A DNA stretch of 64,000 bases from Escherichia coli (GCF_013315695.1 NZ_CP054353.1), one strand, 5' to 3'; positions 38,132 to 62,342 are shown, counted from the stretch's first letter. Notes: generated by a model not told the origin, from the letters alone. Numbers and translations are program-made.

Positions 38132-39526
38132 ATGCCATTTAAAAAACTCTCCCGACGCACCTTCCTGACGGCAAGCTCGGCGCTTGCCTTCCTCCATACC
38201 CCTTTCGCTCGCGCGCTTCCCGCCCGACAAATCGTTAACATTAACGACTACAACCCACACGACTGGATCGCCTCATTTAAACAAGCCTTCAGCGAAGGGC
38301 AAACGGTCGTCGTGCCTGCCGGATTCGTTTGTGAAAATATCAACACCGGCATCTTCATTCCTCCTGGCAAAACGTTGCACATCCTTGGAAGCCTGCGCGG
38401 CAACGGCAGAGGGCGTTTTGTCTTACAAGACGGCAGCCAGGTGACAGGGGAGAAGGGCGGCCGTATGCATAACATCACCCTGGATGTGCGCGGTTCTGAC
38501 TGCATCATCAAAGGGTTGGCGATGAGCGGTTTTGGCCCGGTAACGCAGATTTATATCGGCGGCAAAAATAAACGCGTCATGCGCAACTTGACCATCGATA
38601 ACCTGACCGTCAGCCACGCTAATTACGCCATTTTACGCCAGGGATTTCATAACCAGATTATCGGTGCCAACATCACCAATTGTAAGTTCAGCGACTTACA
38701 GGGCGACGCCATTGAATGGAATGTAGCAATCAATGATCGCGACATTTTGATATCCGACCATGTCATCGAGCGCATCAACTGTACTAACGGCAAAATCAAC
38801 TGGGGTATTGGCATAGGACTGGCAGGAAGTACTTACGATAATAATTATCCGGAAAACCAGGCAGTGAAAAACTTTGTCGTTGCGAATATCACGGGATCAG
38901 ATTGTCGGCAACTGATCCATGTTGAAAATGGTAAACATTTTGTTATCCGTAATATCAAAGCTCGTAATATCACGCCGGATTTCAGTAAGAAAGCAGGTAT
39001 TGATAACGCCACAGTTGCTATTTATGGTTGTGACAACTTTGTGATTGATAATATTGAAATGATTAATAGTGCCGGGATGTTAATCGGCTATGGGGTAATT
39101 AAAGGCAAATATCTCTCGATACCGCAGAATTTCCGAGTGAATGATATTCAACTGGATAATACTCATCTTGCTTATAAATTGCGCGGCATCCAAATCTCCG
39201 CCGGGAATGCTGTCTCCTTTGTGGCGCTGACTAACATTGAGATGAAGCGTGCGTCGCTGGAGTTACACAACAAACCGCAACATCTTTTTATGCGAAATAT
39301 CAATGTGATGCAGGAATCCTCAGTTGGACCCGCATTGAGCATGAACTTTGACATGCGCAAAGACGTTCGCGGCGTGTTTATGGCGAAAAAAGAAACACTG
39401 CTGTCTCTTGCAAATGTTCATGCGGTGAATGAAAAAGGACAAATCTCCGTCGATATCGACAGGATTAATCACCATATTGTTAATGTGGAGAAGATTAACT
39501 TTAGATTGCCAGAACGGAGGGAGTAG
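38132..39526 (+). CDS. wcaM: Colanic acid biosynthesis protein WcaM (secreted, beta-helix-like)
   Basis: 464-aa ORF with twin-arginine-like signal ([15 protein letters not shown]); synteny. Confidence 0.92.
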
Positions 39527-39700
39527 ATTTGCGACCATTCCTGGAAAAATGGAGTCATACTTAGGAACAATGCTACTGCAATCCACAACGAAGCGGCGTA
39601 ACATCACAAGTAATTCAGTAATCAATTCAGGGTAATTGATGCTGGCGAAAAAAATCGAACAAGCTATAATTCAGCAACCATTTTACAGGTGGATGAAATA

Positions 39701-40594
39701 ATGACGAATTTAAAAGCAGTTATTCCTGTAGCGGGTCTTGGGATGCATATGTTGCCTGCCACTAAGGCGATTCCCAAAGAGATGCTACCGATCGTCGACA
39801 AGCCAATGATTCAGTACATCGTTGACGAGATTGTGGCTGCAGGGATCAAAGAAATCCTCCTGGTAACTCACGCTTCCAAGAACGCGGTCGAAAACCACTT
39901 CGACACCTCTTATGAATTAGAATCTCTCCTTGAACAGCGCGTGAAGCGTCAACTGCTGGCGGAAGTACAGTCCATTTGCCCGCCGGGCGTGACAATTATG
40001 AACGTGCGTCAGGGCGAACCTTTAGGTTTGGGCCACTCCATTTTATGTGCACGACCTGCCATTGGTGACAATCCATTTGTCGTGGTGCTGCCAGACGTTG
40101 TGATCGACGACGCCAGCGCCGACCCGCTGCGCTACAACCTTGCTGCCATGATTGCGCGCTTCAACGAAACGGGCCGCAGCCAGGTGCTGGCAAAACGTAT
40201 GCCGGGTGACCTCTCTGAATACTCTGTCATCCAGACCAAAGAGCCGCTGGACCGCGAAGGTAAAGTCAGCCGCATTGTTGAATTCATCGAAAAACCGGAT
40301 CAGCCGCAGACGCTGGACTCAGACATCATGGCCGTTGGTCGCTATGTGCTTTCTGCCGATATTTGGCCGGAACTGGAACGCACGCAGCCTGGTGCATGGG
40401 GGCGTATTCAGCTGACTGATGCCATTGCCGAACTGGCGAAAAAACAGTCCGTTGATGCCATGCTGATGACCGGCGACAGCTACGACTGCGGTAAAAAAAT
40501 GGGTTATATGCAAGCGTTCGTGAAGTATGGACTACGCAACCTCAAAGAAGGGGCGAAGTTCCGTAAAGGGATTGAGAAGCTGTTAAGCGAATAA
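39701..40594 (+). CDS. galF: UTP-glucose-1-phosphate uridylyltransferase regulatory paralogue GalF
   Basis: ORF track starts at 39689; trimmed to ATG 39701 ([43 protein letters not shown]...), 297 aa. Confidence 0.95.
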
Positions 40595-40851
40595 TGAAAA
40601 TCTGACCGGATGTAACGGTTGATAAGAAAATTATAACGGCAGTGAAGATTAGCGGCGAAAGTAATTTGTCGCGAATTTTCCTGCCGTTGTTTTATATAAA
40701 CAATCAGAATAACAACGACTTAGCAATAGGATTTTAGTCAAAGTTTTCCAGGATTTTCCTTGTTTCCAGAGCGGATTGGTAAGACAATTAGCGCTTGAAT
40801 TTTTCGAGTTAAGCGCGAGTGGGTAACGCTCGTCACATCGTAGGAATGCAT

Positions 40852-40891
40852 GCAGTGCTCTGGTAGCTGTAAAGCCAGGGGCGGTAGCGTG
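40852..40891 (+). promoter_or_regulatory. JUMPstart element with ops site (GGCGGTAGCGTG) in the O-antigen operon leader
   Basis: GCAGTGCTCTGGTAGCTGTAAAGCCAGGGGCGGTAGCGTG about 75 bp upstream of rmlB. Confidence 0.8.
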
Positions 40892-40966
40892 CATTAATAC
40901 CTCTATTAATCAAACTGAGAGCCGCTTATTTCACAGCATGCTCTGAAGTAATATGGAATAAATTAA

Positions 40967-42052
40967 GTGAAGATACTTGTTACTGGGGGCGCAGGATTTA
41001 TTGGTTCTGCTGTAGTTCGTCACATTATAAATAATACGCAGGATAGTGTTGTTAATGTCGATAAATTAACGTACGCCGGAAACCTGGAATCACTTGCTGA
41101 TGTTTCTGACTCTGAACGCTATGTTTTTGAACATGCGGATATTTGCGATGCTGCTGCAATGGCGCGGATTTTTGCTCAGCATCAGCCGGATGCAGTGATG
41201 CACCTGGCTGCTGAAAGCCATGTGGATCGTTCAATTACAGGCCCTGCGGCATTTATTGAAACCAATATTGTTGGTACTTATGTCCTTTTGGAAGCGGCTC
41301 GCAATTACTGGTCTGCTCTTGATGGCGACAAGAAAAATAGCTTCCGTTTTCATCATATTTCTACTGACGAAGTCTATGGTGATTTGCCTCATCCTGACGA
41401 AGTAAATAATAAAGAACAATTACCCCTCTTTACTGAGACGACAGCTTACGCGCCTAGTAGTCCTTATTCCGCATCAAAAGCATCCAGCGATCATTTAGTC
41501 CGCGCGTGGAAACGTACCTATGGTTTACCGACTATTGTGACTAACTGTTCGAATAACTACGGTCCTTATCACTTTCCGGAAAAATTGATTCCACTAGTAA
41601 TTCTTAATGCTCTGGAAGGTAAGGCATTACCTATTTATGGCAAAGGGGATCAAATTCGTGACTGGCTGTATGTTGAAGATCATGCGCGTGCGTTATATAC
41701 CGTAGTTACTGAAGGTCAAGCGGGTGAAACCTATAACATTGGCGGACACAACGAAAAGAAAAACATCGATGTTGTGCTGACTATTTGTGATTTGTTGGAC
41801 GAGATAGTCCCGAAAGAGAAATCTTATCGTGAGCAAATTACTTATGTTGCTGATCGCCCAGGGCATGATCGCCGTTATGCGATTGATGCTGAGAAGATTG
41901 GTCGCGAATTGGGATGGAAACCACAGGAAACGTTTGAGAGTGGGATTCGTAAAACGGTGGAATGGTATTTGGCTAATGCAAAATGGGTTGATAATGTGAA
42001 AAGTGGTGCCTATCAATCGTGGATTGAACAGAACTATGAGGGCCGCCAGTAA
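40967..42052 (+). CDS. rfbB: dTDP-glucose 4,6-dehydratase
   Basis: 361-aa ORF, GTG start, (M)[20 protein letters not shown]..., recognised as RmlB. Confidence 0.95.
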
Positions 42053-42951
42053 TGAATATCCTCCTTTTTGGCAAAACAGGGCAGGTAGGTTGGGAACTAC
42101 AGCGTGCTCTGGCACCTCTGGGTAATTTGATTGCTCTTGATGTTCACTCCACTGATTACTGTGGTGATTTTAGTAACCCTGAAGGTGTGGCTGAAACAGT
42201 CAAAAGAATTCGACCTGATGTTATTGTTAATGCTGCGGCTCACACCGCAGTAGATAAGGCTGAGTCAGAACCCGAATTTGCACAATTACTCAATGCGACT
42301 AGCGTTGAATCAATTGCAAAAGCGGCAAATGAAGTTGGGGCTTGGGTAATTCATTACTCAACTGACTACGTATTCCCTGGAAATGGCGACACGCCATGGC
42401 TGGAGATGGATGCAACCGCACCGCTAAATGTTTACGGTGAAACCAAGTTAGCTGGAGAAAAAGCATTACAAGAGCATTGTGCGAAGCACCTAATTTTCCG
42501 TACCAGCTGGGTCTATGCAGGTAAAGGAAATAATTTCGCCAAAACGATGTTGCGTCTGGCAAAAGAGCGTGAAGAACTAGCCGTTATTAATGATCAGTTT
42601 GGTGCGCCAACAGGTGCTGAACTGCTGGCTGATTGTACGGCACATGCCATTCGTGTCGCACTGAATAAACCGGATGTCGCAGGCTTGTACCATTTGGTAG
42701 CCAGTGGTACCACAACCTGGTACGATTATGCTGCGCTGGTTTTTGAAGAGGCGCGCAATGCAGGCATTCCTCTTGCACTCAACAAGCTCAACGCAGTACC
42801 AACAACTGCCTATCCTACACCAGCTCGTCGTCCACATAACTCTCGCCTTAATACAGAAAAATTTCAGCAGAATTTTGCGCTTGTATTGCCTGACTGGCAG
42901 GTTGGTGTGAAACGCATGCTCAACGAATTATTTACGACTACAGCAATTTAA
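42052..42951 (+). CDS. rfbD: dTDP-4-dehydrorhamnose reductase
   Basis: 299-aa [23 protein letters not shown]...; start overlaps the rmlB stop. Confidence 0.95.
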   Translation: MNILLFGKTGQVGWELQRALAPLGNLIALDVHSTDYCGDFSNPEGVAETVKRIRPDVIVNAAAHTAVDKAESEPEFAQLLNATSVESIAKAANEVGAWVIHYSTDYVFPGNGDTPWLEMDATAPLNVYGETKLAGEKALQEHCAKHLIFRTSWVYAGKGNNFAKTMLRLAKEREELAVINDQFGAPTGAELLADCTAHAIRVALNKPDVAGLYHLVASGTTTWYDYAALVFEEARNAGIPLALNKLNAVPTTAYPTPARRPHNSRLNTEKFQQNFALVLPDWQVGVKRMLNELFTTTAI

Positions 42952-43008
42952 TAGTTTTTGCATCTTGTTCGTGATGGTGGAGCAAGATGAATTAAAAGGA
43001 ATGATGAA

Positions 43009-43887
43009 ATGAAAACGCGTAAAGGTATTATTTTAGCGGGTGGTTCTGGTACTCGTCTTTATCCTGTGACTATGGTCGTCAGTAAACAGCTATTACCTAT
43101 ATATGATAAACCGATGATCTATTATCCGCTTTCTACACTGATGTTAGCGGGTATTCGCGATATTCTGATTATTAGTACGCCACAGGATACTCCTCGTTTT
43201 CAACAACTGCTGGGTGACGGTAGCCAGTGGGGCCTGAATCTTCAGTACAAAGTGCAACCGAGTCCGGATGGTCTTGCGCAGGCATTTATTATCGGTGAAG
43301 AGTTTATTGGTGGTGATGATTGTGCTTTGGTACTTGGTGATAATATCTTCTACGGTCACGACCTGCCTAAGTTAATGGATGCCGCTGTTAACAAAGAAAG
43401 TGGTGCAACGGTATTTGCCTATCACGTTAATGATCCTGAACGCTATGGTGTCGTTGAGTTTGATAAAAACGGTACGGCGATCAGCCTGGAAGAAAAACCG
43501 CTACAACCAAAAAGTAATTATGCGGTAACCGGGCTTTATTTTTATGATAACGACGTTGTCGAAATGGCGAAAAATCTTAAGCCTTCTGCCCGCGGTGAAC
43601 TGGAAATTACCGATATTAACCGTATCTATATGGAACAAGGGCGTTTATCTGTTGCCATGATGGGGCGTGGTTATGCGTGGTTAGACACGGGGACACATCA
43701 GAGCCTGATTGAGGCAAGCAACTTTATTGCAACAATTGAAGAGCGTCAGGGGCTGAAAGTTTCCTGCCCGGAAGAAATTGCTTACCGTAAAGGGTTTGTT
43801 GATGCTGAGCAGGTGAAAGTATTAGCTGAACCTCTGAAAAAAAATGCTTATGGTCAGTATCTGCTGAAAATGATTAAAGGTTATTAA
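43009..43887 (+). CDS. rfbA: Glucose-1-phosphate thymidylyltransferase
   Basis: 292-aa [60 protein letters not shown]..., recognised as RmlA. Confidence 0.95.
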
Positions 43888-43891
43888 TAAA

Positions 43892-44440
43892 ATGAACGTA
43901 ATTAAAACAGAAATTCCTGATGTACTGATTTTTGAACCGAAAGTTTTTGGTGATGAGCGTGGTTTCTTTTTTGAGAGCTTTAACCAGAAGGTTTTTGAGG
44001 AAGCTGTAGGCCGCAAAGTTGAATTTGTTCAGGATAACCATTCGAAGTCTAGTAAAGGTGTTTTACGCGGGCTGCATTATCAGTTGGAACCTTATGCACA
44101 AGGAAAATTGGTGCGTTGCGTTGTCGGTGAAGTTTTTGACGTAGCTGTTGATATTCGTAAATCGTCATCGACTTTTGGCAAATGGGTTGGGGTGAATTTA
44201 TCTGCTGAGAATAAGCGGCAATTGTGGATTCCTGAGGGATTTGCACATGGTTTTTTAGTGCTGAGTGAGACGGCGGAGTTTTTGTATAAGACGACAAATT
44301 ATTATCATCCTCAGAGTGATAGAGGAATAAAATGGGATGATCCAAGCATCAATATTTCATGGCCAGTCGATTCACAAGTGCTGCTATCAGCTAAAGATAA
44401 TAAGCATCCTCCATTAACAAAGATTGAAATGTATAGTTAA
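43892..44440 (+). CDS. rfbC: dTDP-4-dehydrorhamnose 3,5-epimerase
   Basis: 182-aa ORF; RmlC family. Confidence 0.93.
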   Translation: MNVIKTEIPDVLIFEPKVFGDERGFFFESFNQKVFEEAVGRKVEFVQDNHSKSSKGVLRGLHYQLEPYAQGKLVRCVVGEVFDVAVDIRKSSSTFGKWVGVNLSAENKRQLWIPEGFAHGFLVLSETAEFLYKTTNYYHPQSDRGIKWDDPSINISWPVDSQVLLSAKDNKHPPLTKIEMYS

Positions 44441-45710
44441 GATCACGATAAATCTTGGAAGGGTTGCAAAATTGAATAAAATAGTGAGCAAAAGTGAAAT
44501 AAGGAACGTAATCCACAATGCTGGCTATATGATGATTACTCAGATAGCTTTATATGTTGCACCATTATTTATACTGAGTTATCTGTTAAAAACACTGGGG
44601 GTTGCACAGTTTGGTAATTATGCCTTAATACTATCAATCGTTGCATATTTACAGATTATAACGGATTATGGTTTTTCTTTTAGTGCAAGTCGTGCGATCT
44701 CACAGAATAGAGAGGACAAAGAATATATATCAAAAATTTATCTGTCAACTATGACTATCAAGTTGGCGATATGCGCTTTCTTATTCTTATTGCTCATGCT
44801 ATTTTTAAATCTTTTGCCTGTGCAAGCTGAATTAAAACAAGGAATATTATATGGATATCTTCTTGTAATAGGAAATACTTTCCAACCACAATGGTTTTTC
44901 CAAGGTATCGAAAAATTAAAAATCATAGCCCTTTCTAATGTTATATCAAGATGCGCCGCGTGTTTACTTGTATTTATCTATGTGAGGAATAGCGAGGATT
45001 TACAAAAAGCACTTTTAGTACAGTCACTTCCATTAGTAATTTCTGCGATTGGATTAAATATATTTATATTGAAATATATCAATATTATTTTTCCGGAAAA
45101 AAAATTATTTAAGGTAATTTTAAAAGAAGGTAAGGATTTTTTTCTTGCATCACTTTATTCTGTTATTCTCAATAATAGTGGCATTTTTCTATTAGGGATT
45201 TTTACTAATCCTGTTATTGTTGGTGTATATGCCGCCGCTGAAAAGATAGTCAAGGCCGTATTGTCGCTATTTACACCACTGACGCAAGCTATATATCCTT
45301 ATAATTGTCGTAAGTTTTCACTATCCGTATTTGACGGCATTGAGGCAGCAAAAAAAACTGGTATACCAATTATAATTTTAGCATTTATAGCTGCTGTTAT
45401 CGTTGCAATTACCTTACCTGTTGCAATCGACTATCTTAATTTTCCAAAAGAAACAATTTTTGTAGGTCAAATATTAAGTGCATGGATCTTTTTTGGTGTT
45501 CTTAATAATGTATTCGGCATTCAGATATTGAGTGCATCAGGAAGAAGTAAAATATATAGTAGGATGGTATTCGTATCAGCGCTTATAACATTACTTTTGA
45601 TTACTCTATTATTGCAGTTTTGTAACGCCACTGGAGTGGCATGTGCAATATTATTGGGTGAAATGTTCTTATCAATATTGTTACTTAAGCGATATAAAAA
45701 AATAATTTAA
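44424..45710 (+). CDS. wzx: O-antigen flippase Wzx (polysaccharide transporter family)
   Basis: Polytopic membrane ORF, AT-rich. Start uncertain: ATG 44424 overlaps rmlC; alternatives are TTG 44472 (after GGAAGGG RBS) and ATG 44529. Confidence 0.8.
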   Translation: MKCIVKITINLGRVAKLNKIVSKSEIRNVIHNAGYMMITQIALYVAPLFILSYLLKTLGVAQFGNYALILSIVAYLQIITDYGFSFSASRAISQNREDKEYISKIYLSTMTIKLAICAFLFLLLMLFLNLLPVQAELKQGILYGYLLVIGNTFQPQWFFQGIEKLKIIALSNVISRCAACLLVFIYVRNSEDLQKALLVQSLPLVISAIGLNIFILKYINIIFPEKKLFKVILKEGKDFFLASLYSVILNNSGIFLLGIFTNPVIVGVYAAAEKIVKAVLSLFTPLTQAIYPYNCRKFSLSVFDGIEAAKKTGIPIIILAFIAAVIVAITLPVAIDYLNFPKETIFVGQILSAWIFFGVLNNVFGIQILSASGRSKIYSRMVFVSALITLLLITLLLQFCNATGVACAILLGEMFLSILLLKRYKKII

Positions 45711-45719
45711 GGAATAGTT

Positions 45720-46847
45720 ATGAAGAAGTTATTATTAGTGTTCGGTACTAGGCCTGAAGCAATAAAGATGGCCTCTATCATTGAATTATTAAAAAAAGAT
45801 TGTAGATTCGAATATAAAATATGTGTGACAGGCCAACATAAAGAGATGCTTGATCAAGTTATGCAAGTATTTGATGTTAAACCTGATTATAATTTACGGA
45901 TTATGCAGCCTGGGCAAACATTAGTATCTGTAGCAACAAATATACTCTCACGGTTAAGTGAAGTTTTAATTATAGAAAAGCCAGATATTATACTTGTGCA
46001 TGGGGATACAACGACTACCCTTGCTGCTACTTTAGCTGGGTATTACCACCAAATAAAAGTTTGTCATGTGGAAGCAGGATTAAGAACAGGGGATATTTAC
46101 TCTCCTTGGCCTGAAGAGGGCAATCGTAAAGTTACAGGGGCATTAGCATGTATTCATTTCGCCCCAACAGAGAGATCAAAAGATAATCTCCTGAGGGAGG
46201 GTGTCAAAGTAAATAATATATTTGTAACGGGTAATACCGTCATCGACTCTTTATTTATTGCAAAAGATATCATAGATAATGACCCTAATATAAAGAACGC
46301 TTTACATAATAAATTTAATTTTCTTGATAAAAGCCGACGAGTAGTACTTATAACAGGTCATCGAAGAGAAAATTTCGGGAAAGGTTTTGAAGATATATGC
46401 TTTGCAATAAAGGAATTAGCTTTCATTTATCCTAATGTAGATTTTATTTATCCGGTGCATCTTAATCCCAATGTAATGGAACCAGTACATCGTATATTAG
46501 ATAATATATGTAATATTTACCTTATTGAGCCCTTGGATTATTTGCCTTTTGTTTATTTAATGAATGAGTCATATTTAATATTGACTGATTCAGGGGGGAT
46601 ACAAGAAGAAGCGCCTTCGTTAGGTAAACCGGTTTTGGTTATGCGTGATACTACTGAACGCCCTGAGGCGGTTGAGGCTGGTACTGTTGTATTAGTGGGG
46701 ACTTCTAAGATAAAAATAGTAAATAAAGTAACGGAGCTATTAAACAATGCTGATATCTACAATGCTATGTCTCTGTTACATAATCCATATGGCGATGGAA
46801 CAGCTGCTCAAAAAATTCTTAATGTGCTCGCCCAAGAGCTAATTTAA
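45720..46847 (+). CDS. UDP-N-acetylglucosamine 2-epimerase (non-hydrolysing), WecB/MnaA-like
   Basis: 375-aa ORF MKKLLLVFGTRPEAIKMASII...HVEAGLRT...; typical 2-epimerase signatures. Confidence 0.85.
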   Translation: MKKLLLVFGTRPEAIKMASIIELLKKDCRFEYKICVTGQHKEMLDQVMQVFDVKPDYNLRIMQPGQTLVSVATNILSRLSEVLIIEKPDIILVHGDTTTTLAATLAGYYHQIKVCHVEAGLRTGDIYSPWPEEGNRKVTGALACIHFAPTERSKDNLLREGVKVNNIFVTGNTVIDSLFIAKDIIDNDPNIKNALHNKFNFLDKSRRVVLITGHRRENFGKGFEDICFAIKELAFIYPNVDFIYPVHLNPNVMEPVHRILDNICNIYLIEPLDYLPFVYLMNESYLILTDSGGIQEEAPSLGKPVLVMRDTTERPEAVEAGTVVLVGTSKIKIVNKVTELLNNADIYNAMSLLHNPYGDGTAAQKILNVLAQELI

Positions 46848-46861
46848 TTTAAGCTAAAAAT

Positions 46862-47926
46862 ATGTTATTAATTATTGCTGATTATCCAAACGAAATGAAT
46901 ATGCGCGAGGGAGCTATGCAACGAATAGATGCGATAGACTCTCTCATTCGAGATCGCAAGCGAGTGTATTTGAATATTTCATTCAAAAAGCATCTAGTTC
47001 GCTCAAATAGTTCCTTTAATAATGTTATAGTTGAAAATCTAAATGCAATTATTCACAGAAACATCATAAAACAGTACATGCAAAAATCAACAACTATATA
47101 TGTTCATTCTGTTTATAATTTATTAAAGGTTATAACGCTCATTGATCTAAAAAAAACAATTCTTGATATACATGGTGTTGTACCGGAAGAACTTTTGGCA
47201 GATAATAAAAAATTACTTAGTAAAGTATATAACATGGTGGAAAAAAAAGGTGTCCTTGGATGCAAAAAATTAATACACGTCAGTACAGAAATGCAAAAAC
47301 ACTATGAAGCAAAATATGGAGTAAACTTGGCTGAAAGGTCAATAGTGCTCCCGATTTTTGAATATAAAAATATAACCCAATCGCAAAACAAATGGACAGA
47401 AAATAAAATACGAAGTATCTATCTTGGAGGATTACAAACATGGCAAAATATTGATAAAATGATTCAAATTTGTGATGACACAGTGATAAACAATGAAGCA
47501 GGTAAGTATGAATTCAACTTTTTCATCCCACAGAGTAACTTGGAAGGGTTTATAGATAAATATTCGTTAAAATTACATAATATCAATGCTAATGCATCTA
47601 CGCTATCACGTGATGAAGTAATTCCCTTTCTAAAAGAATGTCATATTGGTTTTGTATTGCGCGATGATATAATAGTAAACAGAGTTGCGTGCCCTACAAA
47701 ATTGGTTGAATATTTAGAGTGTGGTGTCGTTCCAGTTGTGCTCTCCCCACTTATAGGTGATTTTTATTCGATGGGATATCAATACATTACTACAGAGGAA
47801 ATGGCTAACAGAAGTATAAGTTTGTTGGATCTTGAAAAAATGGCTGCACATAATTTACAAATTTTGACTTCTTATCAGAAGAGAACCTACAAGGCACAGA
47901 AAGAACTTATTGCTCAACTGTGCTGA
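46862..47926 (+). CDS. Putative O-antigen glycosyltransferase (family not resolved)
   Basis: 354-aa AT-rich ORF inside the O-antigen cluster; no firm family call from sequence alone. Confidence 0.55.
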   Translation: MLLIIADYPNEMNMREGAMQRIDAIDSLIRDRKRVYLNISFKKHLVRSNSSFNNVIVENLNAIIHRNIIKQYMQKSTTIYVHSVYNLLKVITLIDLKKTILDIHGVVPEELLADNKKLLSKVYNMVEKKGVLGCKKLIHVSTEMQKHYEAKYGVNLAERSIVLPIFEYKNITQSQNKWTENKIRSIYLGGLQTWQNIDKMIQICDDTVINNEAGKYEFNFFIPQSNLEGFIDKYSLKLHNINANASTLSRDEVIPFLKECHIGFVLRDDIIVNRVACPTKLVEYLECGVVPVVLSPLIGDFYSMGYQYITTEEMANRSISLLDLEKMAAHNLQILTSYQKRTYKAQKELIAQLC

Positions 47927-47977
47927 ATTTTTTACATATATAAAATTATGTAAGCATATCGCGGGTCAGGTAATTGT

Positions 47978-48982
47978 ATGCGTATCAAATATAAAGATAA
48001 CGGTTATATATTATGTTTTCTATTATGTTTCATTTTGAGCTACTTAGTTTTACTCAAATCTGACTACTTTCCTGCTGATTTTCTGCCATATACAGAAATA
48101 TACGATGGGACATACGGAGAAATCAATAATATTGAGCCTGCCTTTTTATATTTAACACGGTTGTTTCATTATTTAAATTTCCCCTATATATTTTTTGCAA
48201 TGTTAGTTTGTGCCTTATGTTTAAGTTGGAAAATAAAATATGCAAGAAAAATAATTAAAGATAGTTATATATATTTATTCTTGTATGTATATGTATCATT
48301 TTATGTGTTTTTGCATGAAATGACTCAATTGCGCATAGCAATTGCAGTCACTATGTGCTATGTGTCGGTTTATTATTACTTTTATAAAAATTGTATTAAA
48401 CATGCACTGCCATGGATGGTGTTGGCTATTTTGTTTCATTACAGCGCCTTGCTTTTATTTATGTCATTATTTATATACAGTTATAGGAGGTTATTAATAG
48501 TAATTATAGGGTTTGTAATATGTATGAGCTTTTTAAACGTGTATGCAGATACAATTGCACTATATTTGCCAAATGAAAAAATAGTAAATTATTTATATAG
48601 TATTTCATCATCATTAGACAATAGAAATGATTTGGCAATATTCAACCTGAATAATATAATATTTTTATCAATATTTATTTTGATCTTTTATCTTAGCCGA
48701 TATATAAAATTAAATGATAATGAGGCGAAGTTTATTAAGTATGTGCAATGTTCAGGAATATTAGCCTTTTGTATTTTCTTTCTGGCTAGTGGAGTCCCGG
48801 TCATTGCTTATCGAACTGCAGAGTTGCTGCGAATATTTTATCCGATGGCTTTAGTATTAATCCTTTCGCATATAAAAAATAATAATATGCGTTATTTTAT
48901 TGCAGTCATTATAGTTATCCTTTCAGGCTTAATGTTGTTTATAACACTAAGGGCTGTATCAATAGTTGGTCAAGGATTATAA
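47978..48982 (+). CDS. wzy: Putative O-antigen polymerase Wzy (EpsG-like multi-pass membrane protein)
   Basis: 334-aa highly hydrophobic, Phe/Tyr/Leu-rich, very AT-rich ORF; position and composition typical of wzy. Confidence 0.7.
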   Translation: MRIKYKDNGYILCFLLCFILSYLVLLKSDYFPADFLPYTEIYDGTYGEINNIEPAFLYLTRLFHYLNFPYIFFAMLVCALCLSWKIKYARKIIKDSYIYLFLYVYVSFYVFLHEMTQLRIAIAVTMCYVSVYYYFYKNCIKHALPWMVLAILFHYSALLLFMSLFIYSYRRLLIVIIGFVICMSFLNVYADTIALYLPNEKIVNYLYSISSSLDNRNDLAIFNLNNIIFLSIFILIFYLSRYIKLNDNEAKFIKYVQCSGILAFCIFFLASGVPVIAYRTAELLRIFYPMALVLILSHIKNNNMRYFIAVIIVILSGLMLFITLRAVSIVGQGL

Positions 48983-48983
48983 A

Positions 48984-49943
48984 ATGAATGTTGCTATTTT
49001 GTTGTCTACGTATAATGGCGAAAAATATTTAGAGGAACAACTGGATTCATTGCTGCTTCAAAGTTATCAGGATTTTGTAGTGTATATCCGTGATGACGGA
49101 TCATCTGATAGAACTGTAAATATAATAAACCAATACGTAATGAAAGATAACAGATTTATTAACGTGGGTAATTCAGAAAATCTTGGTTGTGCTGCTTCGT
49201 TTATTAATTTATTAAGAAATGCTTCAGCCGATATTTATATGTTTTGTGACCAAGATGATTATTGGCTTCCGAATAAATTACAGCGTGCTGTGGATTATTT
49301 TTCGGCTATTGATCCTTTACAACCTACCTTGTATCATTGCGATCTAAGCGTTGTTGATGAAAAACTTAATATTATACAAAATTCATTTTTGCAGCATCAG
49401 AAAATGTCAGCGTATGATTCAATGAGAAAAAATAATCTTTTCATACAAAATTTTGTTGTTGGTTGTTCATGTGCTGTTAATGCTTCACTTGCGGAATTTG
49501 TTCTTTCGCGAATTGGAGAGCAGCATGTAAAAATGATAGCTATGCATGACTGGTGGTTAGCCGTGACTGCAAAACTTTTTGGTCGAATCCATTTTGATAA
49601 TACTCAAACGATTCTTTATCGACAACATCAGGGCAATGTATTAGGTGCAAAATCATCAGGTATGATGCGTTTTATTCGATTAGGATTAAATGGGCAAGGG
49701 ATTTCGCGAGTAGTATCTTTTAGAAAAAAAGTTTGTGCGCAAAATAAGCTTCTTTTAGATGTCTATGATAAAGATTTAAATCTTGAGCAAAAAAAATCTA
49801 TCAGGCTTGTAATTGAGGGCCTTAAAGAGAACTCTTCAATTGCTGACCTTTTAAAATGTTTCTATCATGGTAGCTATATGCAAGGTTTTAAACGTAATCT
49901 TGCCTTAATATATTCAGTTCTTTACACAAAAAAAAGAAGATAG
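48984..49943 (+). CDS. Family 2 glycosyltransferase (rhamnosyltransferase-like)
   Basis: ORF track starts at 48966; ATG 48984 gives MNVAILLSTYNGEKYLEEQLDSLLLQSYQDFVVYIRDDGSSD, classic GT2 N-terminus. Confidence 0.8.
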   Translation: MNVAILLSTYNGEKYLEEQLDSLLLQSYQDFVVYIRDDGSSDRTVNIINQYVMKDNRFINVGNSENLGCAASFINLLRNASADIYMFCDQDDYWLPNKLQRAVDYFSAIDPLQPTLYHCDLSVVDEKLNIIQNSFLQHQKMSAYDSMRKNNLFIQNFVVGCSCAVNASLAEFVLSRIGEQHVKMIAMHDWWLAVTAKLFGRIHFDNTQTILYRQHQGNVLGAKSSGMMRFIRLGLNGQGISRVVSFRKKVCAQNKLLLDVYDKDLNLEQKKSIRLVIEGLKENSSIADLLKCFYHGSYMQGFKRNLALIYSVLYTKKRR

Positions 49944-49952
49944 TGTATCCTT

Positions 49953-51017
49953 ATGAAAAAAATTGCTATTATCGGTACTGTTGGCATACCAGCATCATAT
50001 GGCGGATTTGAAACATTAGTTGAAAATTTAACAAGATACAATTCCTCGGGAGTTGAATATAATGTTTTTTGTTCATCGTTTCACTACAAATCCCACCAAA
50101 AAAAACATAATGGGGCCCGTTTAATTTATATTCCGCTTAAAGCCAATGGATGGCAGAGCATTGCGTATGACATAATTTCGTTAGCATATTCTATTTTTTT
50201 GAAGCCTGATGTGATTCTGATTTTAGGGGTTTCTGGTTGTTCATTTTTGCCTTTCTTCAAACTCTTAACACGCGCTAAGTTTATTACTAATATTGATGGC
50301 CTGGAATGGCGAAGAGATAAATGGAATTCAAAAGTGAAACGTTTCTTAAAATTTTCAGAAAAAATCGCAGTTCAATATTCGGATGTCGTTATTACGGATA
50401 ATGAGGCAATTTCTGAGTACGTTTTTAACGAGTATAATAAAGATAGCCGAGTTATTGCCTATGGAGGGGATCATGCATGGTTAAATACTGAGGATGTATT
50501 TACAACAAGAAATTATAAAAGCGATTACTACCTTTCTGTATGTCGTATCGAACCCGAAAACAATGTAGAATTAATTTTAAAAACATTTTCAAAGCTAAAA
50601 TATAAAATAAAATTTATTGGAAATTGGAATGGCAGCGAGTTTGGAAAGAAACTTAGGCTGCATTATTCTAACTATCCAAATATTGAAATGATTGATCCGA
50701 TTTATGATCTTCAACAATTATTTCACTTACGAAATAATTGCATAGGATATATACATGGTCATTCGGCTGGAGGAACAAACCCTTCTTTAGTCGAGGCAAT
50801 GCATTTTAGTAAACCTATATTTGCATATGATTGTAAGTTTAATAGGTACACTACTGAAAATGAAGCATGTTATTTTTCTAATGAATCTGACCTCGCAGAG
50901 AAAATCATAATGCATTGTGAGCTATCATTAGGTGTCTCTGGCACGAAAATGAAAGAAATTGCTAACCAGAAATACACTTGGAGACGAATAGCAGAAATGT
51001 ATGAGGATTGCTATTAA
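49953..51017 (+). CDS. Family 1 (GT4-type) glycosyltransferase
   Basis: 354-aa ORF MKKIAIIGTVGIPASYGGFETLVENL..., typical of O-antigen GT1 enzymes. Confidence 0.8.
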   Translation: MKKIAIIGTVGIPASYGGFETLVENLTRYNSSGVEYNVFCSSFHYKSHQKKHNGARLIYIPLKANGWQSIAYDIISLAYSIFLKPDVILILGVSGCSFLPFFKLLTRAKFITNIDGLEWRRDKWNSKVKRFLKFSEKIAVQYSDVVITDNEAISEYVFNEYNKDSRVIAYGGDHAWLNTEDVFTTRNYKSDYYLSVCRIEPENNVELILKTFSKLKYKIKFIGNWNGSEFGKKLRLHYSNYPNIEMIDPIYDLQQLFHLRNNCIGYIHGHSAGGTNPSLVEAMHFSKPIFAYDCKFNRYTTENEACYFSNESDLAEKIIMHCELSLGVSGTKMKEIANQKYTWRRIAEMYEDCY

Positions 51018-51121
51018 CTCTGTTAAACTTCAAATCTTTTACAATATATGGCATGACTATAAGCGCATTAATTGTTTTTCAAGCCGCTCTCGCGGTGACC
51101 ACCCCCTGACAGGAGTAAACA

Positions 51122-52528
51122 ATGTCAAAGCAACAGATCGGCGTCGTCGGTATGGCAGTGATGGGGCGCAACCTTGCGCTCAACATCGAAAGCCGTGGTT
51201 ATACCGTCTCTATTTTCAACCGTTCCCGTGAAAAGACGGAAGAAGTGATTGCCGAAAATCCAGGCAAGAAACTGGTTCCTTACTATACGGTGAAAGAGTT
51301 TGTTGAATCTCTGGAAACGCCTCGTCGCATCCTGTTAATGGTGAAAGCAGGTGCAGGCACGGATGCTGCTATTGATTCCCTCAAACCATATCTCGATAAA
51401 GGTGACATCATCATTGATGGTGGCAATACCTTCTTCCAGGACACCATTCGTCGTAACCGTGAACTTTCTGCCGAAGGCTTTAACTTCATTGGTACCGGTG
51501 TCTCCGGTGGTGAAGAAGGCGCGCTGAAAGGTCCTTCTATTATGCCTGGTGGGCAGAAAGATGCCTATGAACTGGTTGCACCAATCCTGACCAAAATCGC
51601 CGCAGTAGCTGAAGACGGGGAGCCATGCGTTACCTATATTGGTGCCGATGGCGCAGGCCATTATGTGAAGATGGTTCACAACGGTATTGAATACGGCGAT
51701 ATGCAGCTGATTGCTGAAGCCTATTCTCTGCTTAAAGGTGGCTTGAACCTTTCCAACGAAGAACTGGCGCAGACCTTTACCGAGTGGAATAACGGTGAAC
51801 TGAGCAGCTACCTGATTGACATCACTAAAGACATCTTCACTAAAAAAGATGAAGACGGTAACTACCTGGTTGATGTGATTCTGGATGAAGCGGCTAACAA
51901 AGGTACCGGTAAATGGACCAGCCAGAGCGCGCTGGATCTCGGTGAACCGCTGTCGCTGATTACCGAGTCTGTGTTTGCACGTTATATCTCTTCTCTGAAA
52001 GATCAGCGTGTTGCCGCATCTAAAGTTCTCTCTGGCCCGCAAGCGCAGCCAGCAGGCGATAAAGATGAGTTCATCGAAAAAGTTCGCCGTGCACTGTATC
52101 TGGGCAAAATCGTTTCTTACGCTCAGGGCTTCTCTCAACTGCGTGCGGCGTCTGAAGAGTACAACTGGGATCTGGACTACGGCGAAATCGCGAAGATTTT
52201 CCGTGCTGGCTGCATCATCCGTGCGCAGTTCCTGCAGAAAATCACCGATGCTTATGCCGAAAATCCGCAGAGCGCTAACCTGCTGCTGGCTCCGTACTTC
52301 AAGCAAATCGCCGATGACTACCAGCAGGCGCTGCGCGATGTCGTCGCTTACGCGGTACAGAACGGTATCCCGGTTCCGACCTTCGCCGCTGCGGTTGCCT
52401 ATTATGACAGCTACCGCGCCGCTGTTCTGCCTGCGAACCTGATCCAGGCACAGCGTGACTATTTCGGTGCGCATACTTATAAGCGCATTGATAAAGAAGG
52501 TGTGTTCCATACCGAATGGCTGGATTAA
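51122..52528 (+). CDS. gnd: 6-phosphogluconate dehydrogenase (decarboxylating)
   Basis: 468-aa [45 protein letters not shown]..., recognised as Gnd. Confidence 0.97.
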
Positions 52529-52556
52529 TCTGATTTAATCAACAATAAAATTGAGG

Positions 52557-52586
52557 CCCGGCGTATATTATGCCGGGTTTTTTTTA
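52557..52586 (+). terminator. Rho-independent terminator after gnd
   Basis: Hairpin CCCGGC-GTATATTAT-GCCGGG followed by T9. Confidence 0.75.
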
Positions 52587-52766
52587 CCAATTATCTTATA
52601 GACTAAATTTCACTGCTTAATATTAACTTAATAAATATCAGCTATTCTTATAAAGAAATTCTGAATTGTTTTTCGTTGCGTTGACCATCTTACAACGTAG
52701 CGTTAAAACTTTTAACTCTTATCAGGATGCTAAAAACATCATGATTCACAGTTAAGTTAATTCTGA

Positions 52767-53942
<1,176 letters not shown>

Positions 53943-53951
53943 CATCCTGTT

Positions 53952-53983
53952 ATCAGGGCTATTTACGCCCTGATTGTCTTTTG
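53952..53983 (+). terminator. Putative rho-independent terminator after ugd
   Basis: Hairpin ATCAGGGC-TATTTAC-GCCCTGAT followed by a T-rich tract. Confidence 0.6.
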
Positions 53984-54087
53984 TTACTTGCGTAACAATT
54001 CATTATTTTTATCAATTATCCTATAGCATTCATGAGGATTATCGCTAAACTATGCGGACTTGGAAATTTCCGTCAGTTAGGGTAATG

Positions 54088-55068
54088 ATGAGAGTAGAAA
54101 ATAATAATGTTTCTGGGCAAAACCATGACCCGGAACAGATTGATTTGATTGATTTACTAGTGCAGTTGTGGCGTGGCAAGATGACAATCATCATTTCCGT
54201 CATTGTGGCTATTGCCCTGGCTATTGGATATTTGGCAGTAGCGAAGGAGAAATGGACGTCAACAGCAATTATCACTCAGCCCGATGTGGGGCAAATTGCT
54301 GGCTATAACAATGCCATGAATGTTATCTATGGTCAGGCTGCACCGAAAGTATCGGATTTGCAGGAGACGTTAATTGGTCGCTTCAGTTCTGCCTTCTCTG
54401 CATTAGCAGAAACGCTGGATAATCAGGAAGAACCAGAAAAACTTACCATCGAACCTTCTGTTAAGAACCAGCAATTACCATTGACTGTTTCTTATGTTGG
54501 GCAAACTGCAGAGGGCGCACAAATGAAGTTGGCCCAATACATTCAGCAAGTTGACGATAAAGTGAATCAAGAGTTAGAAAAGGATCTCAAGGACAACATT
54601 GCTCTGGGACGGAAAAACTTGCAGGACTCTTTAAGAACGCAGGAAGTGGTTGCGCAGGAGCAGAAAGATCTGCGTATCCGTCAGATTCAGGAAGCGTTGC
54701 AGTATGCGAATCAGGCGCAGGTGACAAAACCGCAGATTCAACAGACTGGCGAAGATATCACACAAGATACGTTGTTCCTTTTGGGGAGCGAAGCGCTGGA
54801 GTCGATGATTAAGCATGAGGCGACCCGTCCGTTGGTGTTCTCACCAAACTACTATCAGACTCGTCAAAACCTGCTTGATATCGAAAGCTTAAAGGTTGAT
54901 GATCTTGATATTCATGCTTACCGCTATGTAATGAAACCGACGTTACCTATTCGTCGTGATAGCCCGAAAAAGGCAATTACCTTGATTCTGGCGGTGCTGC
55001 TGGGTGGCATGGTTGGCGCGGGGATTGTGCTGGGGCGTAATGCTCTACGCAATTACAACGCGAAGTAA
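54088..55068 (+). CDS. wzzB: O-antigen chain length determinant (polysaccharide co-polymerase) WzzB
   Basis: ORF track starts at 54052; trimmed to MRVENNNVSGQNHDPEQIDLIDLLVQLWRGK..., 326 aa. Confidence 0.95.
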   Translation: MRVENNNVSGQNHDPEQIDLIDLLVQLWRGKMTIIISVIVAIALAIGYLAVAKEKWTSTAIITQPDVGQIAGYNNAMNVIYGQAAPKVSDLQETLIGRFSSAFSALAETLDNQEEPEKLTIEPSVKNQQLPLTVSYVGQTAEGAQMKLAQYIQQVDDKVNQELEKDLKDNIALGRKNLQDSLRTQEVVAQEQKDLRIRQIQEALQYANQAQVTKPQIQQTGEDITQDTLFLLGSEALESMIKHEATRPLVFSPNYYQTRQNLLDIESLKVDDLDIHAYRYVMKPTLPIRRDSPKKAITLILAVLLGGMVGAGIVLGRNALRNYNAK

Positions 55069-55090
55069 TCTTTTCGGTTTTAAAGAAAAA

Positions 55091-55122
55091 GGGCAGGGTG
55101 GTGACACCTTGCCCGTTTTTTT
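55091..55122. terminator. Bidirectional rho-independent terminator between the convergent wzzB and hisI
   Basis: Hairpin GGGCAGGGTGGTGACACCTTGCCC flanked by an A-run upstream and T8 downstream. Confidence 0.7.
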
Positions 55123-55163
55123 GCCGGATGCGGCAACAATATCGCATCCGCTTACCCCGCAAC

Positions 55164-55768
55164 TCACTGATGCCGTTTACGCAGGTTCTCAATTACCGTC
55201 GTTAAATCCAGCCCCTGATCCTGCAACAACACCAGCAGGTGATACATCAAATCAGATGCCTCGTTGGTCAGCTCAAAGCGGTCATGTACCGTCGCGGCCA
55301 GCGCGGTTTCCACGCCTTCTTCGCCTACTTTCTGCGCAATGCGTTTGGTGCCGCTGGCATACAGTTTGGCAGTGTAGGAGGTTTCCGGGTCGGCAGATTT
55401 ACGTTCGGCGAGCAGTTGTTCCAGTTGATACAGGAACAGCCACTGGTGAGCGGTGTCGCCGAAGCAGCTGCTGGTGCCTTTGTGGCAGGTTGGCCCGATG
55501 GGATTCGCCAGCACCAGTAACGTGTCGTTGTCGCAGTCCGGGGCAATACTCACCACATTGAGAAAATTGCCCGACGTTTCGCCTTTGGTCCACAGTCGCT
55601 GTTTAGTGCGCGAGAAGAAGGTGACTTTGCCGCTTTCGAGGGTTTTGTCCAGAGCTTCCGGGTTCATATAGCCCAGCATTAGCACTTCGCCGGATACCGC
55701 ATGTTGCACAATCACCGGCATCAGTCCGTCGGTTTTTTCCCAGTCCAGTTCGCGACGTTGTTGTTCTG

Positions 55769-55775
<7 letters not shown>
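55164..55775 (-). CDS. hisI: Bifunctional phosphoribosyl-AMP cyclohydrolase / phosphoribosyl-ATP pyrophosphatase
   Basis: 203-aa [29 protein letters not shown]..., recognised as HisI(E). Confidence 0.96.
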
Positions 55776-57853
<2,078 letters not shown>

Positions 57854-57854
<1 letters not shown>

Positions 57855-58920
57855 TACAGCACTCCTTTCGACGAGGGCAGGGTGTCGCCTTCCACGCGGA
57901 TGGCCTGGCGTAGGGTGCGGCCAAACGCTTTGAACAGGCTCTCTACACGGTGATGATCGTTTTTACCTTTGGTTTTCAGGTGCAGCGTCACGCCCATGGT
58001 GTAAGAGAGTGAGCGGAAGAAGTGTTCGATCATTTCAGTGCTGAGATCGCCCACACGCTGGTAGGTAAATTCAGCTTTATATTCCAGATGCGGGCGACCA
58101 GAGATATCCAGCGCGCAGCGGGCAAGGCATTCGTCCATCGGCAGCACAAAACCGAAGCGGCAAATACCGCGTTTGTCGCCAAGAGCTATTTTTAACGCTT
58201 CGCCCAGCGCCAGACCGGTATCTTCGACGGTGTGGTGATCGTCGATATAGAGGTCGCCTTTGACGTTGATTTCCATACGGAAACCGCCGTGGGTAGCGAT
58301 CTGATCCAGCATGTGATCAAAGAAGCCAACGCCGGTGTTAATCTTGCTGCCACCTTCGCGATCCAGCCACACCTGGACGTCAATTTGCGTCTCTTTGGTG
58401 TTGCGCACTACATGGGCGTAACGGTCTCGTTTCGTGAGTTGCTCGCCAATCATCGGCCAGTTCAGGATTTCGCGGTCGTAGCGTAAACCATTAATGCCCA
58501 TGTTTTCAGCGAGTTGAATATCGGTCGCGCGATCGCCAATCACATAACTATTGGCACGATCCATCGCTTGCTCAGCGAGATAACGCTCCACCAGTTTTAC
58601 TTTCGGCTTACGGCAGTCGCACTCATCGGCGGGCAGGTGCGGACAAATCAGCACTTCATCAAACTGCACGCCTTGCGAGGTGAAGATCTGCATCATCAGG
58701 TTGTGCGGGCCATCAAAATCCGCCTGCGGGAAACTTTGTGTTCCCAGACCATCCTGATTAGTGATCATCACCAGCTTGTAGCCCGCTTTTTGCAGCTTCA
58801 GCAGCTCCGGGATCACGCCTGGTTCAAAGGCGAGTTTGTCAAAACGGTCCACCTGAAAATCACTCGGCGGTTCGCTAATCAGGGTTCCATCGCGATCGAT
58901 AAAAAGATACTTCTGACTCA

Positions 58921-58921
<1 letters not shown>
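57854..58921 (-). CDS. hisB: Bifunctional histidinol-phosphatase / imidazoleglycerol-phosphate dehydratase
   Basis: ORF track ends at 58924 ([15 protein letters not shown]...); second ATG gives the 355-aa form. Confidence 0.95.
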
Positions 58922-61292
<2,371 letters not shown>

Positions 61293-61297
61293 GGCGA

Positions 61298-62197
61298 TCA
61301 CTCCATCATCTTCTCAATCGGCAGGACCAGGATTGAACTGGCACCCAACGCTTTCAGTTTTTCCATCGTTTCCCAGAACAGGGTTTCGCTACTCACCATG
61401 TGCATCGCTACGCGCTGTTGGTCACCCGCCAGCGGCAGAATGGTTGGGCGTTCGGCACCTGGCAGCAGGGCGATGACTTCATCCAGGCGTTCGGTCGGTG
61501 CGTGCATCATGATGTATTTTGATTCGCGCGCCTGGATCACACCCTGAATACGGGTCAGCAGTTTGTCGATCAGTTGCTGTTTGGATTCTTCCATTTCGCC
61601 ATCGCGCTGGATCAGGCAGGCTTTCGAGCGGTAGATAACTTCGACTTCGCGCAGGCCGTTAGCTTCCAGCGTGGCACCGGTGGAAACCAGATCGCAAATC
61701 GCATCCGCCAGTCCGGCACGCGGCGCAACTTCGACAGAACCGTTCAGTAAGCAGGATTTAAAAGAGATACCTTTCTGATCGAGATAACGCTTGAGCAGGT
61801 GAGGATAAGAGGTGGCGATACGTTTACCGTTTAAGGAGAGCGGACCGTCCCAGGCTTCATCAACCGGCGTTGCCAGTGAAAGTCGGCAGCCGCCGAAATC
61901 CAGACGACGCAGGGTAAAGTAGCGCGGATCTTCACCCTGGGCTCGGCGGTTAAGCAGCTCTTCTTCCAGCACGTTTTCGCCGATAATCCCAAGGTCTACC
62001 ACGCCGTCCATTACCAGACCGGGAATGTCGTCGTCACGCACGCGCAGAATATCAATCGGCATGTTTTCTGCCATCGCGATCAGGCGCTGGGTGTGAAGAT
62101 TGATTTTAATGCCACAGCGCGCCAGTAATTCGCGTGAGTCATCACTTAAACGGCCGGATTTCTGCATAGCTATGCGTAAACGAGTGTTGTCTGTCAT
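61298..62197 (-). CDS. hisG: ATP phosphoribosyltransferase
   Basis: ORF track ends at 62236; trimmed to [25 protein letters not shown]..., 299 aa. Confidence 0.96.
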
Positions 62198-62244
62198 TTT
62201 CTTATTCCTCTTTAAACCTGTCTGAACCGTTATCAACCGCGCAA

Positions 62245-62280
62245 TAAAAAAGCCCCCGGAAGGTGATCTTCCGGGGGCTT
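62245..62280 (-). terminator. his operon attenuator terminator (leader region)
   Basis: On the minus strand: GCCCCCGGAAGATCACCTTCCGGGGGC hairpin followed by TTTTTT, between hisL and hisG. Confidence 0.8.
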
Positions 62281-62342
62281 TCTCATGCGTTCATGCACCA
62301 CTGGAAGATCTGAATGTCTTCCAGCACACATCGCCTGAAAGA

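Follow-up and report, generated by a model that had tools for sequence, protein, structure and literature searches.

Which O antigen does the locus between galF and gnd specify in Escherichia coli GCF_013315695.1 (NZ_CP054353.1), which enzymes would build it, and how did the locus come to lie on this chromosome? The window analysed here, a 64,000-nucleotide stretch, contains six consecutive plus-strand open reading frames (ORFs) that fill 44424-51017 with spacers of 9, 14, 51, 1, and 9 bp. A sequence-only reading had described this segment as a non-K-12 O-antigen variable region 3' of rmlBDAC, encoding a flippase, a UDP-N-acetylglucosamine (UDP-GlcNAc) 2-epimerase, a polymerase, and three glycosyltransferases (GTs), and ORF and family scans agree with that content. 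Its tentative O1 call was also right, and a subtype can now be added: with a probability of about 97%, these genes form the serogroup-specific portion of the O1A O-antigen cluster of E. coli. The cluster is an already known one; judged by its sequence, it is an ordinary O1A locus, essentially identical to that of the O1 reference strain. The six genes run wzx-mnaA-wekM-wzy-wekN-wekO, between rmlBDAC and gnd:

44484-45710, plus strand: wzx, O1 O-unit flippase, 408 amino acids (PF01943, RefSeq name)
45720-46847, plus strand: mnaA (wecB paralog), non-hydrolysing UDP-GlcNAc 2-epimerase yielding UDP-N-acetylmannosamine (UDP-ManNAc) (TIGR00236, PF02350)
46862-47926, plus strand: wekM, glycosyltransferase with a GT-B fold, predicted to attach beta-1,2-ManNAc to the distal L-rhamnose (L-Rha) (structure model, gene neighbourhood)
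47978-48982, plus strand: wzy, O1A O-antigen polymerase (PF14897, RefSeq name, oligonucleotide match)
48984-49943, plus strand: wekN, GT2, predicted alpha-1,3-L-rhamnosyltransferase (PF00535, DQD motif)
49953-51017, plus strand: wekO, DUF1972 plus GT1, predicted beta-1,4-L-rhamnosyltransferase (PF09314, PF00534, NF046071)

A megablast search of 5,426 complete E. coli genomes places the region in 101 and its entire 6.6 kb in 91, always at 99% identity or above and with wzx and wzy annotated as 'O1 family'. Carriers include O1:K1:H7 avian pathogenic E. coli (APEC) strains and ATCC 11775, which we take to be the O1 reference strain U5/41. Three single-nucleotide polymorphisms (SNPs) in 6,594 bp separate the window from ATCC 11775 (NZ_CP033092.2 1951203-1957796), leaving 6,591 bases identical. 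Five of the six proteins are unchanged, Wzx and Wzy among them with no amino acid difference (100% identity), and WekM has one conservative change at residue 203, isoleucine in the window but valine in ATCC 11775. Both wzx and wzy match O1 and no other serogroup, as their RefSeq names also indicate. In silico, the forward primer, probe, and reverse primer of the wzyO1A quantitative PCR (qPCR) assay match at 48765-48854 with no mismatches, and the qPCR oligonucleotides for O1non-A (wzxO1non-A), O2, and K1 have no match in the window within 3 mismatches. The wzyO1A 'reverse primer' printed in Table 1 of the assay publication is a sense sequence that matches the plus strand (48,830-48,854), like the forward primer and the probe (PMC5293828).

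The order rmlB-rmlD-rmlA-rmlC-wzx-mnaA-wekM-wzy-wekN-wekO between galF and gnd is that expected of O1A, and the clusters of the O1A reference strain U5-41/G1632 (GenBank GU299791, cited in PMC5293828) and of ATCC 11775 share genes, order, location, and wzyO1A oligonucleotide matches with the window. A wekM I202V polymorphism is reported among O1a isolates (PMC11237799), and the I203/V203 difference fits it within one residue of numbering. When the polymorphisms of that study are placed on the window ORFs, wekN agrees exactly and wzx, wekM, and wekO are off by one, a mapping that is consistent with the same variants but is not proof of them.

Three of the remaining functional calls were sound as first made. 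Wzx matches PF01943 at 4e-41, has about 12 hydrophobic segments, and is named 'O1 family O-antigen flippase' in RefSeq. MnaA scores 503.7 bits against TIGR00236 (equivalog cutoff 210) and 3.8e-120 against PF02350, but only 108.8 bits against the hydrolysing NeuC model, below its cutoff of 235.9, so the epimerase is of the proposed WecB/MnaA type and of no other enzyme class. The Wzy-like protein belongs to the EpsG family (PF14897, 1.2e-30) and carries the RefSeq name 'O1 family O-antigen polymerase'. The start of the segment needs adjustment. Position 44424 holds as the start of the longest ORF (a TTG codon overlapping rmlC), but not as that of wzx, which RefSeq places at the GTG at 44484; the resulting length of 408 residues agrees with the 412 residues of a Citrobacter ortholog.

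What the cluster would produce is well described in other strains. The O1A unit is ->3)-[beta-D-ManNAc-(1->2)]-alpha-L-Rha-(1->3)-alpha-L-Rha-(1->3)-beta-L-Rha-(1->4)-beta-D-GlcNAc-(1-> (PMC11148006), which agrees with the L-rhamnose- and ManNAc-containing repeat that had been predicted from gene content. The O unit of ATCC 11775 has a mass of 844 Da by matrix-assisted laser desorption/ionization (MALDI) analysis, made up of three deoxyhexoses and two N-acetylhexosamines, and was identified as O1A (PMC11148006). Nuclear magnetic resonance (NMR) studies confirmed the O1a polysaccharide in isolates of sequence types (STs) 95, 38, and 59, whose rmlB-wekO operons differ by conservative substitutions only (PMC11237799). 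The source strain is accordingly predicted to make O1A, given near-identical clusters that make the O1A polymer. The system is a Wzx/Wzy-dependent one: Wzx, Wzy, and the chain-length regulator WzzB are all present, and the ORFs from galF to gnd include no wzm/wzt ABC transporter genes.

The leader, the sugar-nucleotide genes, and the downstream flank complete the locus:

40853-40891, plus strand: JUMPstart element in the galF-rmlB spacer (Rfam RF01707), with the ops core GGCGGTAGCGTG at 40880-40891
40967-42052, plus strand: rmlB, dTDP-L-rhamnose synthesis (ORF; RefSeq rfbB colinear in ATCC 11775 and APEC E16002)
42052-42951, plus strand: rmlD, dTDP-L-rhamnose synthesis (ORF; RefSeq rfbD colinear in the same two genomes)
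43009-43887, plus strand: rmlA, dTDP-L-rhamnose synthesis (ORF; RefSeq rfbA colinear in the same two genomes)
43892-44440, plus strand: rmlC, dTDP-L-rhamnose synthesis (ORF; RefSeq rfbC colinear in the same two genomes)
51122-52528, plus strand: gnd, conserved downstream flank (ORF, colinear RefSeq annotation)
52776-53942, plus strand: ugd, conserved downstream flank (ORF, colinear RefSeq annotation)
54088-55068, plus strand: wzzB, chain-length regulator, conserved downstream flank (ORF, colinear RefSeq annotation)

The JUMPstart element was found in an Rfam scan of 39,000-56,000 with 60 bits (gathering score 35, E 7e-12), and its ops match is exact. It is expected to act as the O-antigen operon leader and RfaH loading site, and its position upstream of rmlB implies RfaH-dependent read-through by antitermination. 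Consensus scans of 40.5-52.9 kb for promoters (48 sites, 45.4 in shuffled sequence) and for terminators (8 sites, 8.6 in shuffled sequence) gave no excess. The O1a operon has been described as extending from rmlB through wekO (PMC11237799). A second exact copy of the ops-containing 12-mer, GGCGGTAGCGTG, lies at 16,602-16,613, about 180 bp 5' of wza at the head of the colanic acid cluster.

A complete assembly route can be proposed from these genes. Transcription would start 5' of rmlB and proceed through the JUMPstart/ops leader with RfaH antitermination. WecA, encoded outside the window, would place GlcNAc-1-phosphate on undecaprenyl phosphate, while RmlBDAC would supply dTDP-beta-L-Rha and MnaA would supply UDP-ManNAc. 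WekO, as a retaining enzyme of the GacB/WchF type, would take the first committed step by adding beta-1,4-Rha to GlcNAc-PP-undecaprenol; WekN, an inverting GT2 enzyme, would add both alpha-1,3-linked rhamnoses, and WekM, a GT-B enzyme paired with MnaA, the beta-1,2-ManNAc side branch. Wzx would then flip the pentasaccharide, Wzy would polymerise it through GlcNAc-beta-(1->3)-Rha bonds between units, and WzzB would set chain length. The division of labour is constrained by the structure, which has four intra-unit linkages for three transferases. With dTDP-beta-L-Rha and UDP-alpha-D-ManNAc as donors, only the beta-L-Rha-(1->4)-GlcNAc linkage is a retaining one.

WekO is the candidate for that linkage. 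The sequence-only reading had called it a GT1 enzyme, and the GT1 domain is present (PF00534, residues 186-319), but the N-terminal part (residues 1-173) matches DUF1972 (PF09314, 4.6e-34), which refines the call to a GacB/WchF-type enzyme. WekO covers the full length of the Cps2T model NF046071 with 229.6 bits, and its GGTNPSLVE at residues 273-281 is the conserved GGTNP(G/S)LLE motif with one conservative L-to-V change. GacB of Streptococcus pyogenes and WchF/Cps2T of S. pneumoniae have the same DUF1972 plus GT1 architecture and share the GGTNPSL(L/V)E motif with WekO. For GacB and WchF, biochemical work has proven a retaining beta-1,4-L-rhamnosyltransferase activity; their motifs are GGTNPGLLE and GGTNPSLLE, and GacB makes Rha-beta-1,4-GlcNAc-PP-undecaprenol (PMC6802508), the very linkage that O1A requires. 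Because of the DUF1972 architecture, the Cps2T alignment, and the motif shared with the proven enzymes, WekO is assigned to the GacB/WchF family and predicted to act as a retaining beta-1,4-L-rhamnosyltransferase on GlcNAc-PP-undecaprenol. Unlike GacB and WchF, it is a Gram-negative O-antigen enzyme with a predicted activity only, and its acceptor is expected to be GlcNAc rather than Glc as for Cps2T. O1non-A-like clusters of Salmonella and Rahnella carry a classical GT4 in place of the DUF1972 GT. This exchange is consistent with the role proposed for WekO, since O1B and O1C carry alpha-D-Gal instead of beta-L-Rha (PMC11148006, PMC11237799).

The GT2 call for WekN was confirmed, with a PF00535 match of 86.7 bits (cutoff 23.3, 2.2e-24), a DXD-type motif (DQD, residues 89-91), and PDB sequence matches to GT2 enzymes. 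This inverting GT-A enzyme probably adds both alpha-1,3 rhamnoses, an assignment made because the other linkages fall to WekO and WekM. A single GT for both alpha-1,3 rhamnose linkages of O1 has already been suggested in the literature, where one unnamed transferase is considered probably responsible for the Rha-Rha linkages of O1, among other clusters (PMC7685785).

The third transferase is WekM, which the sequence-only reading had left unclassified. Direct searches bear that out: WekM has no Pfam or NCBIfam match, phmmer against PDB sequences returns 0 matches at E<=10, and a profile search returns only unrelated glycan-binding proteins at E~0.2. Homologs and a structure model nevertheless allow it to be classified. 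Among 40 aligned sequences (WekM and 39 homologs), 26 match PF13439, a GT4-type N-terminal domain, 10 match PF00534, and none matches GT2. An AlphaFold (AF2) model built from this alignment has a predicted local distance difference test score (pLDDT) of 94.6 and a predicted template modelling score (pTM) of 0.89, and it shows a two-domain GT-B fold. Foldseek returns 331 PDB matches for the model at E<=1e-3, the best being GlgM, glycogen synthase, OtsA, BshA, MshA, and WaaG, with template modelling (TM) scores of 0.55-0.66. The fold was resolved by the structure model alone, as sequence and profile searches of the PDB gave nothing meaningful. On the modelled structure WekM is a GT-B fold enzyme, and the RefSeq name 'glycosyl transferase family 2' (also 'glycosyltransferase family protein'; WP_000924431.1) is wrong for it, because homolog domains and model both indicate GT-B with no GT2 signal.

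Gene neighbourhood offers a clue to the WekM substrate. Eleven homologs with 61-32% identity were picked for taxonomic spread before their context was seen, from Citrobacter, Rahnella, Salmonella, Aeromonas, Iodobacter, Comamonas, Acinetobacter, Pedobacter, a Chloroflexi metagenome-assembled genome, Neisseria, and a 2.2 Mb metagenomic contig. In 11/11 of these loci the homolog directly follows a PF02350 epimerase gene of the same strand, often with overlapping stop and start codons. No rml genes occur within the 5-7 kb flanks read in six of them (L010, L011, L012, L014, L017, and L018). The O1 mosaic A47 keeps wzx-mnaA-GT while its other GTs are swapped, and all O1 subtypes share ManNAc on Rha as an epitope (PMC5293828). 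The consistent epimerase pairing, the retention in A47, and the shared epitope argue that WekM is probably the beta-1,2-ManNAc transferase. The balance tips modestly toward a broader reading, in which WekM represents an uncharacterised GT-B family obligately paired, and often coupled in translation, with UDP-GlcNAc 2-epimerases in loci for surface polysaccharides from Proteobacteria to Bacteroidota and Chloroflexi, misnamed in RefSeq and acting as an inverting beta-ManNAc transferase despite its likeness to retaining GT4 enzymes.

Several points weigh against this picture in its linkage detail, as distinct from the O1A identity itself, against which nothing speaks. The individual transferase assignments are ones we infer from families, context, and the known structure. 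The literature yielded no linkage-level assignment or biochemical data for WekM, WekN, WekO, or the MnaA-paired Acinetobacter Gtr. WekO scores 229.6 bits where the Cps2T equivalog cutoff is 500, which makes it a homolog and not an equivalog. The nearest structural neighbours of WekM are retaining GT-B enzymes, yet all linkages left for it are inverting, and the EX7E motif is incomplete in WekM: only K280 and E283 are conserved, and P291 stands at the position of the second glutamate. An alternative is an exchange of roles, with WekN as the beta-ManNAc transferase and WekM as the alpha-1,3-rhamnosyltransferase for one or both rhamnoses. GT2 enzymes are inverting and could form a beta-ManNAc linkage, neither WekM nor WekN comes with biochemical data in the literature found, and the 'one glycosyltransferase' credited with the Rha-Rha linkages goes unnamed (PMC7685785). 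Such an exchange is unlikely, however, because it is the WekM homologs that sit directly 3' of the epimerase in every sampled locus, some of them lacking rml genes across the flanks read, whereas the accompanying GT2 genes are not conserved (those of Salmonella and Rahnella have no significant similarity to WekN), and because it is mnaA and the adjacent GT that the A47 mosaic retains (PMC5293828). The assignment of ManNAc to WekM and of the alpha-1,3 rhamnoses to WekN is thus preferred.

Two further alternatives concern the antigen as a whole. Serogroup O1 is genetically heterogeneous, and O1non-A clusters have the overall gene order of O1A with only 41-55% identity to the O1A reference, for which Delannoy et al. 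(2017) designed discriminating O1A and O1non-A qPCR assays (PMC5293828). O1non-A strain CB13533 (KY115224) and the mosaic A47 (KY115226) share the rmlBDAC-wzx-mnaA-GT-wzy-GT-GT architecture with O1A, and O1non-A clusters share the ManNAc-beta-(1->2)-Rha epitope (PMC5293828). Gene content alone therefore cannot separate O1A from an O1B/O1C-type cluster or an A47-type mosaic. Nucleotide identity does so: the window is three SNPs from ATCC 11775, far from the 41-55% of O1non-A genes, the wzyO1A oligonucleotides match exactly where those for wzxO1non-A have no match, and the last GT is of the DUF1972 type that fits beta-L-Rha-(1->4)-GlcNAc, not a classical GT4, where the O1non-A polymer has alpha-D-Gal in place of beta-L-Rha. 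A non-A or mosaic cluster is scarcely credible on this evidence. It is also conceivable that the O1A cluster is silent or defective in the source strain, which would then be rough and make no O1A antigen. Rough variants are common, the trans-acting genes wecA, waaL, and rfaH lie outside the window, and 64 kb of sequence cannot show expression; other O1A genomes include strain 19AR1321, whose cluster carries an internal ISApl1 insertion, and APEC E16002, whose galF is frameshifted (L001, 3312-4171). All ten genes from rml to wekO are intact in the window, however, as is the JUMPstart leader, and five of the six variable proteins equal those of ATCC 11775, the sixth differing by a single conservative substitution that agrees, to within one residue of numbering, with a polymorphism known from O1a isolates. 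A silent or defective cluster is therefore very improbable, and an intact O1A cluster remains the preferred reading of the locus.

Composition suggests a foreign origin for the variable region. As claimed at the outset, the segment is AT-rich and atypical in codon usage. Its GC content is 0.322 against 0.511 in the remaining window, where it forms the lowest-GC 6.6 kb, and GC at third codon positions (GC3) is 0.24-0.27 in each of the six genes against 0.53 in gnd and 0.54-0.59 in wcaL, wcaM, and galF. The rmlBDAC block directly upstream of wzx (40967-44440) has a GC content of 0.39-0.46. A counterpart exists in a freundii-type Citrobacter (L007, ERR7450997_29, 1099-11170), which carries a syntenic rmlBDAC-wzx-mnaA-wekM-wzy(EpsG)-GT2-DUF1972 GT-gnd cluster of equally low GC (0.31-0.38). 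Its proteins are 53-74% identical to those of O1A (Wzy 53%, WekM 61%, Wzx and the GT2 63%, WekO 66%, MnaA 74%), and it probably makes a related Rha- and ManNAc-containing O antigen. Because low GC is common to this syntenic but diverged cluster, the data fit acquisition of the low-GC genes long ago from a low-GC source.

The chromosome around the locus records a second, recent event:

4775-55104, no strand: recombination block comprising the colanic acid cluster and the O1A locus (per-kb differences to ATCC 11775 and NCTC86)

The breakpoints fall within 3,996-4,775 and 55,104-57,058, and the block extends from yegD to hisA, enclosing the colanic acid genes as well as the O1A locus. Between 4,100 and 57,000 the window differs from ATCC 11775 at 43 positions, 30 of them scattered and 13 from two indels in dgcE, whereas outside the block there are 178 differences in 1-4,000 and 197 in 57,000-64,000 (3-4%). 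NCTC86, whose cluster at this site is of the O15 type, has 100% identity to the left flank and departs from the window beyond about 11.7 kb. Both flanks and the cluster recur at about 100% identity in five genomes (OZ547117, OZ546925, OZ546911, LR898874, and CP146670). By these comparisons the O1A locus is part of a block of about 51-53 kb shared with the O1:K1:H7 reference lineage but set in a different chromosomal background. A block near-identical to ATCC 11775 between flanks that are 3-4% divergent points to recent exchange of the entire capsule/O-antigen region between E. coli lineages by homologous recombination, and its presence on another background fits the occurrence of O1a in ST95, ST59, ST38, and ST648 (PMC11237799). 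The horizontal acquisition proposed by the sequence-only reading thus gains two time scales, an old low-GC origin and a recent intraspecies recombination.

At the same chromosomal site, E. coli K-12 MG1655 (O16) holds rfbBDAC-rfbX-glf-wbbH-I-J-K-wbbL::IS5. The glf-wbbHIJKL genes and the IS5 had been named correctly for K-12, but rfbX, the K-12 wzx, had been left out. Both loci share the conserved rmlBDAC block and the Wzx/Wzy logic; the variable regions are entirely different, and the K-12 cluster is broken by IS5 whereas that of the window is intact.

O1A ranks among the main O types of extraintestinal pathogenic E. coli, and O-antigen conjugate vaccines in development include it, making its correct recognition important for typing. 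The sequence of the cluster dates from 2010, every serotyping database contains it, and NMR has confirmed its product in several lineages; in that sense the cluster is already known. What the present analysis adds is a correction of a database name (WekM as GT-B, not GT2), a linkage-by-linkage proposal for the three transferases that may be useful for glyco-engineering of O1A production strains, and a clean case of O-antigen locus exchange as a recombination block of about 51-53 kb. Only the WekM family, a misannotated GT-B group paired with MnaA in all sampled loci, is a mildly novel thread.

Some further observations concern the remainder of the window and other genomes. Within the recombination block, the diguanylate cyclase gene dgcE is split into two minus-strand ORFs (6968-8824 and 8814-10298). 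Relative to ATCC 11775 and NCTC86, it has a frameshifting expansion of a 7-bp tandem repeat (three copies of ACGAATC, not two) and an in-frame 6-bp duplication, the two indel sites being 8,528-8,533 and 8,809-8,815. Repeats in the mdtA-yegL spacer (404-988) correspond to tandem Ibs type I toxin loci in the annotations of ATCC 11775 and NCTC86. A plasmid-borne O1A copy was considered and rejected: the single 'plasmid' match is a 5,269 bp record of APEC 16-1068 that consists wholly of O1A cluster sequence and is most likely an assembly artefact, and that genome also has a chromosomal copy. A different O-antigen cluster, of the dTDP-3-acetamido-sugar type, occurs in a strain of Japanese black bear origin, E. 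coli wlxctx60 (NZ_AP045833.1; L016, 12001-14360). Next to gnd in that genome lies a 99.4% identical relic of the 3' end of O1A wekN and a truncated wekO, flanked by two IS1 elements, which looks like the footprint of an earlier O1A cluster that has since been replaced.

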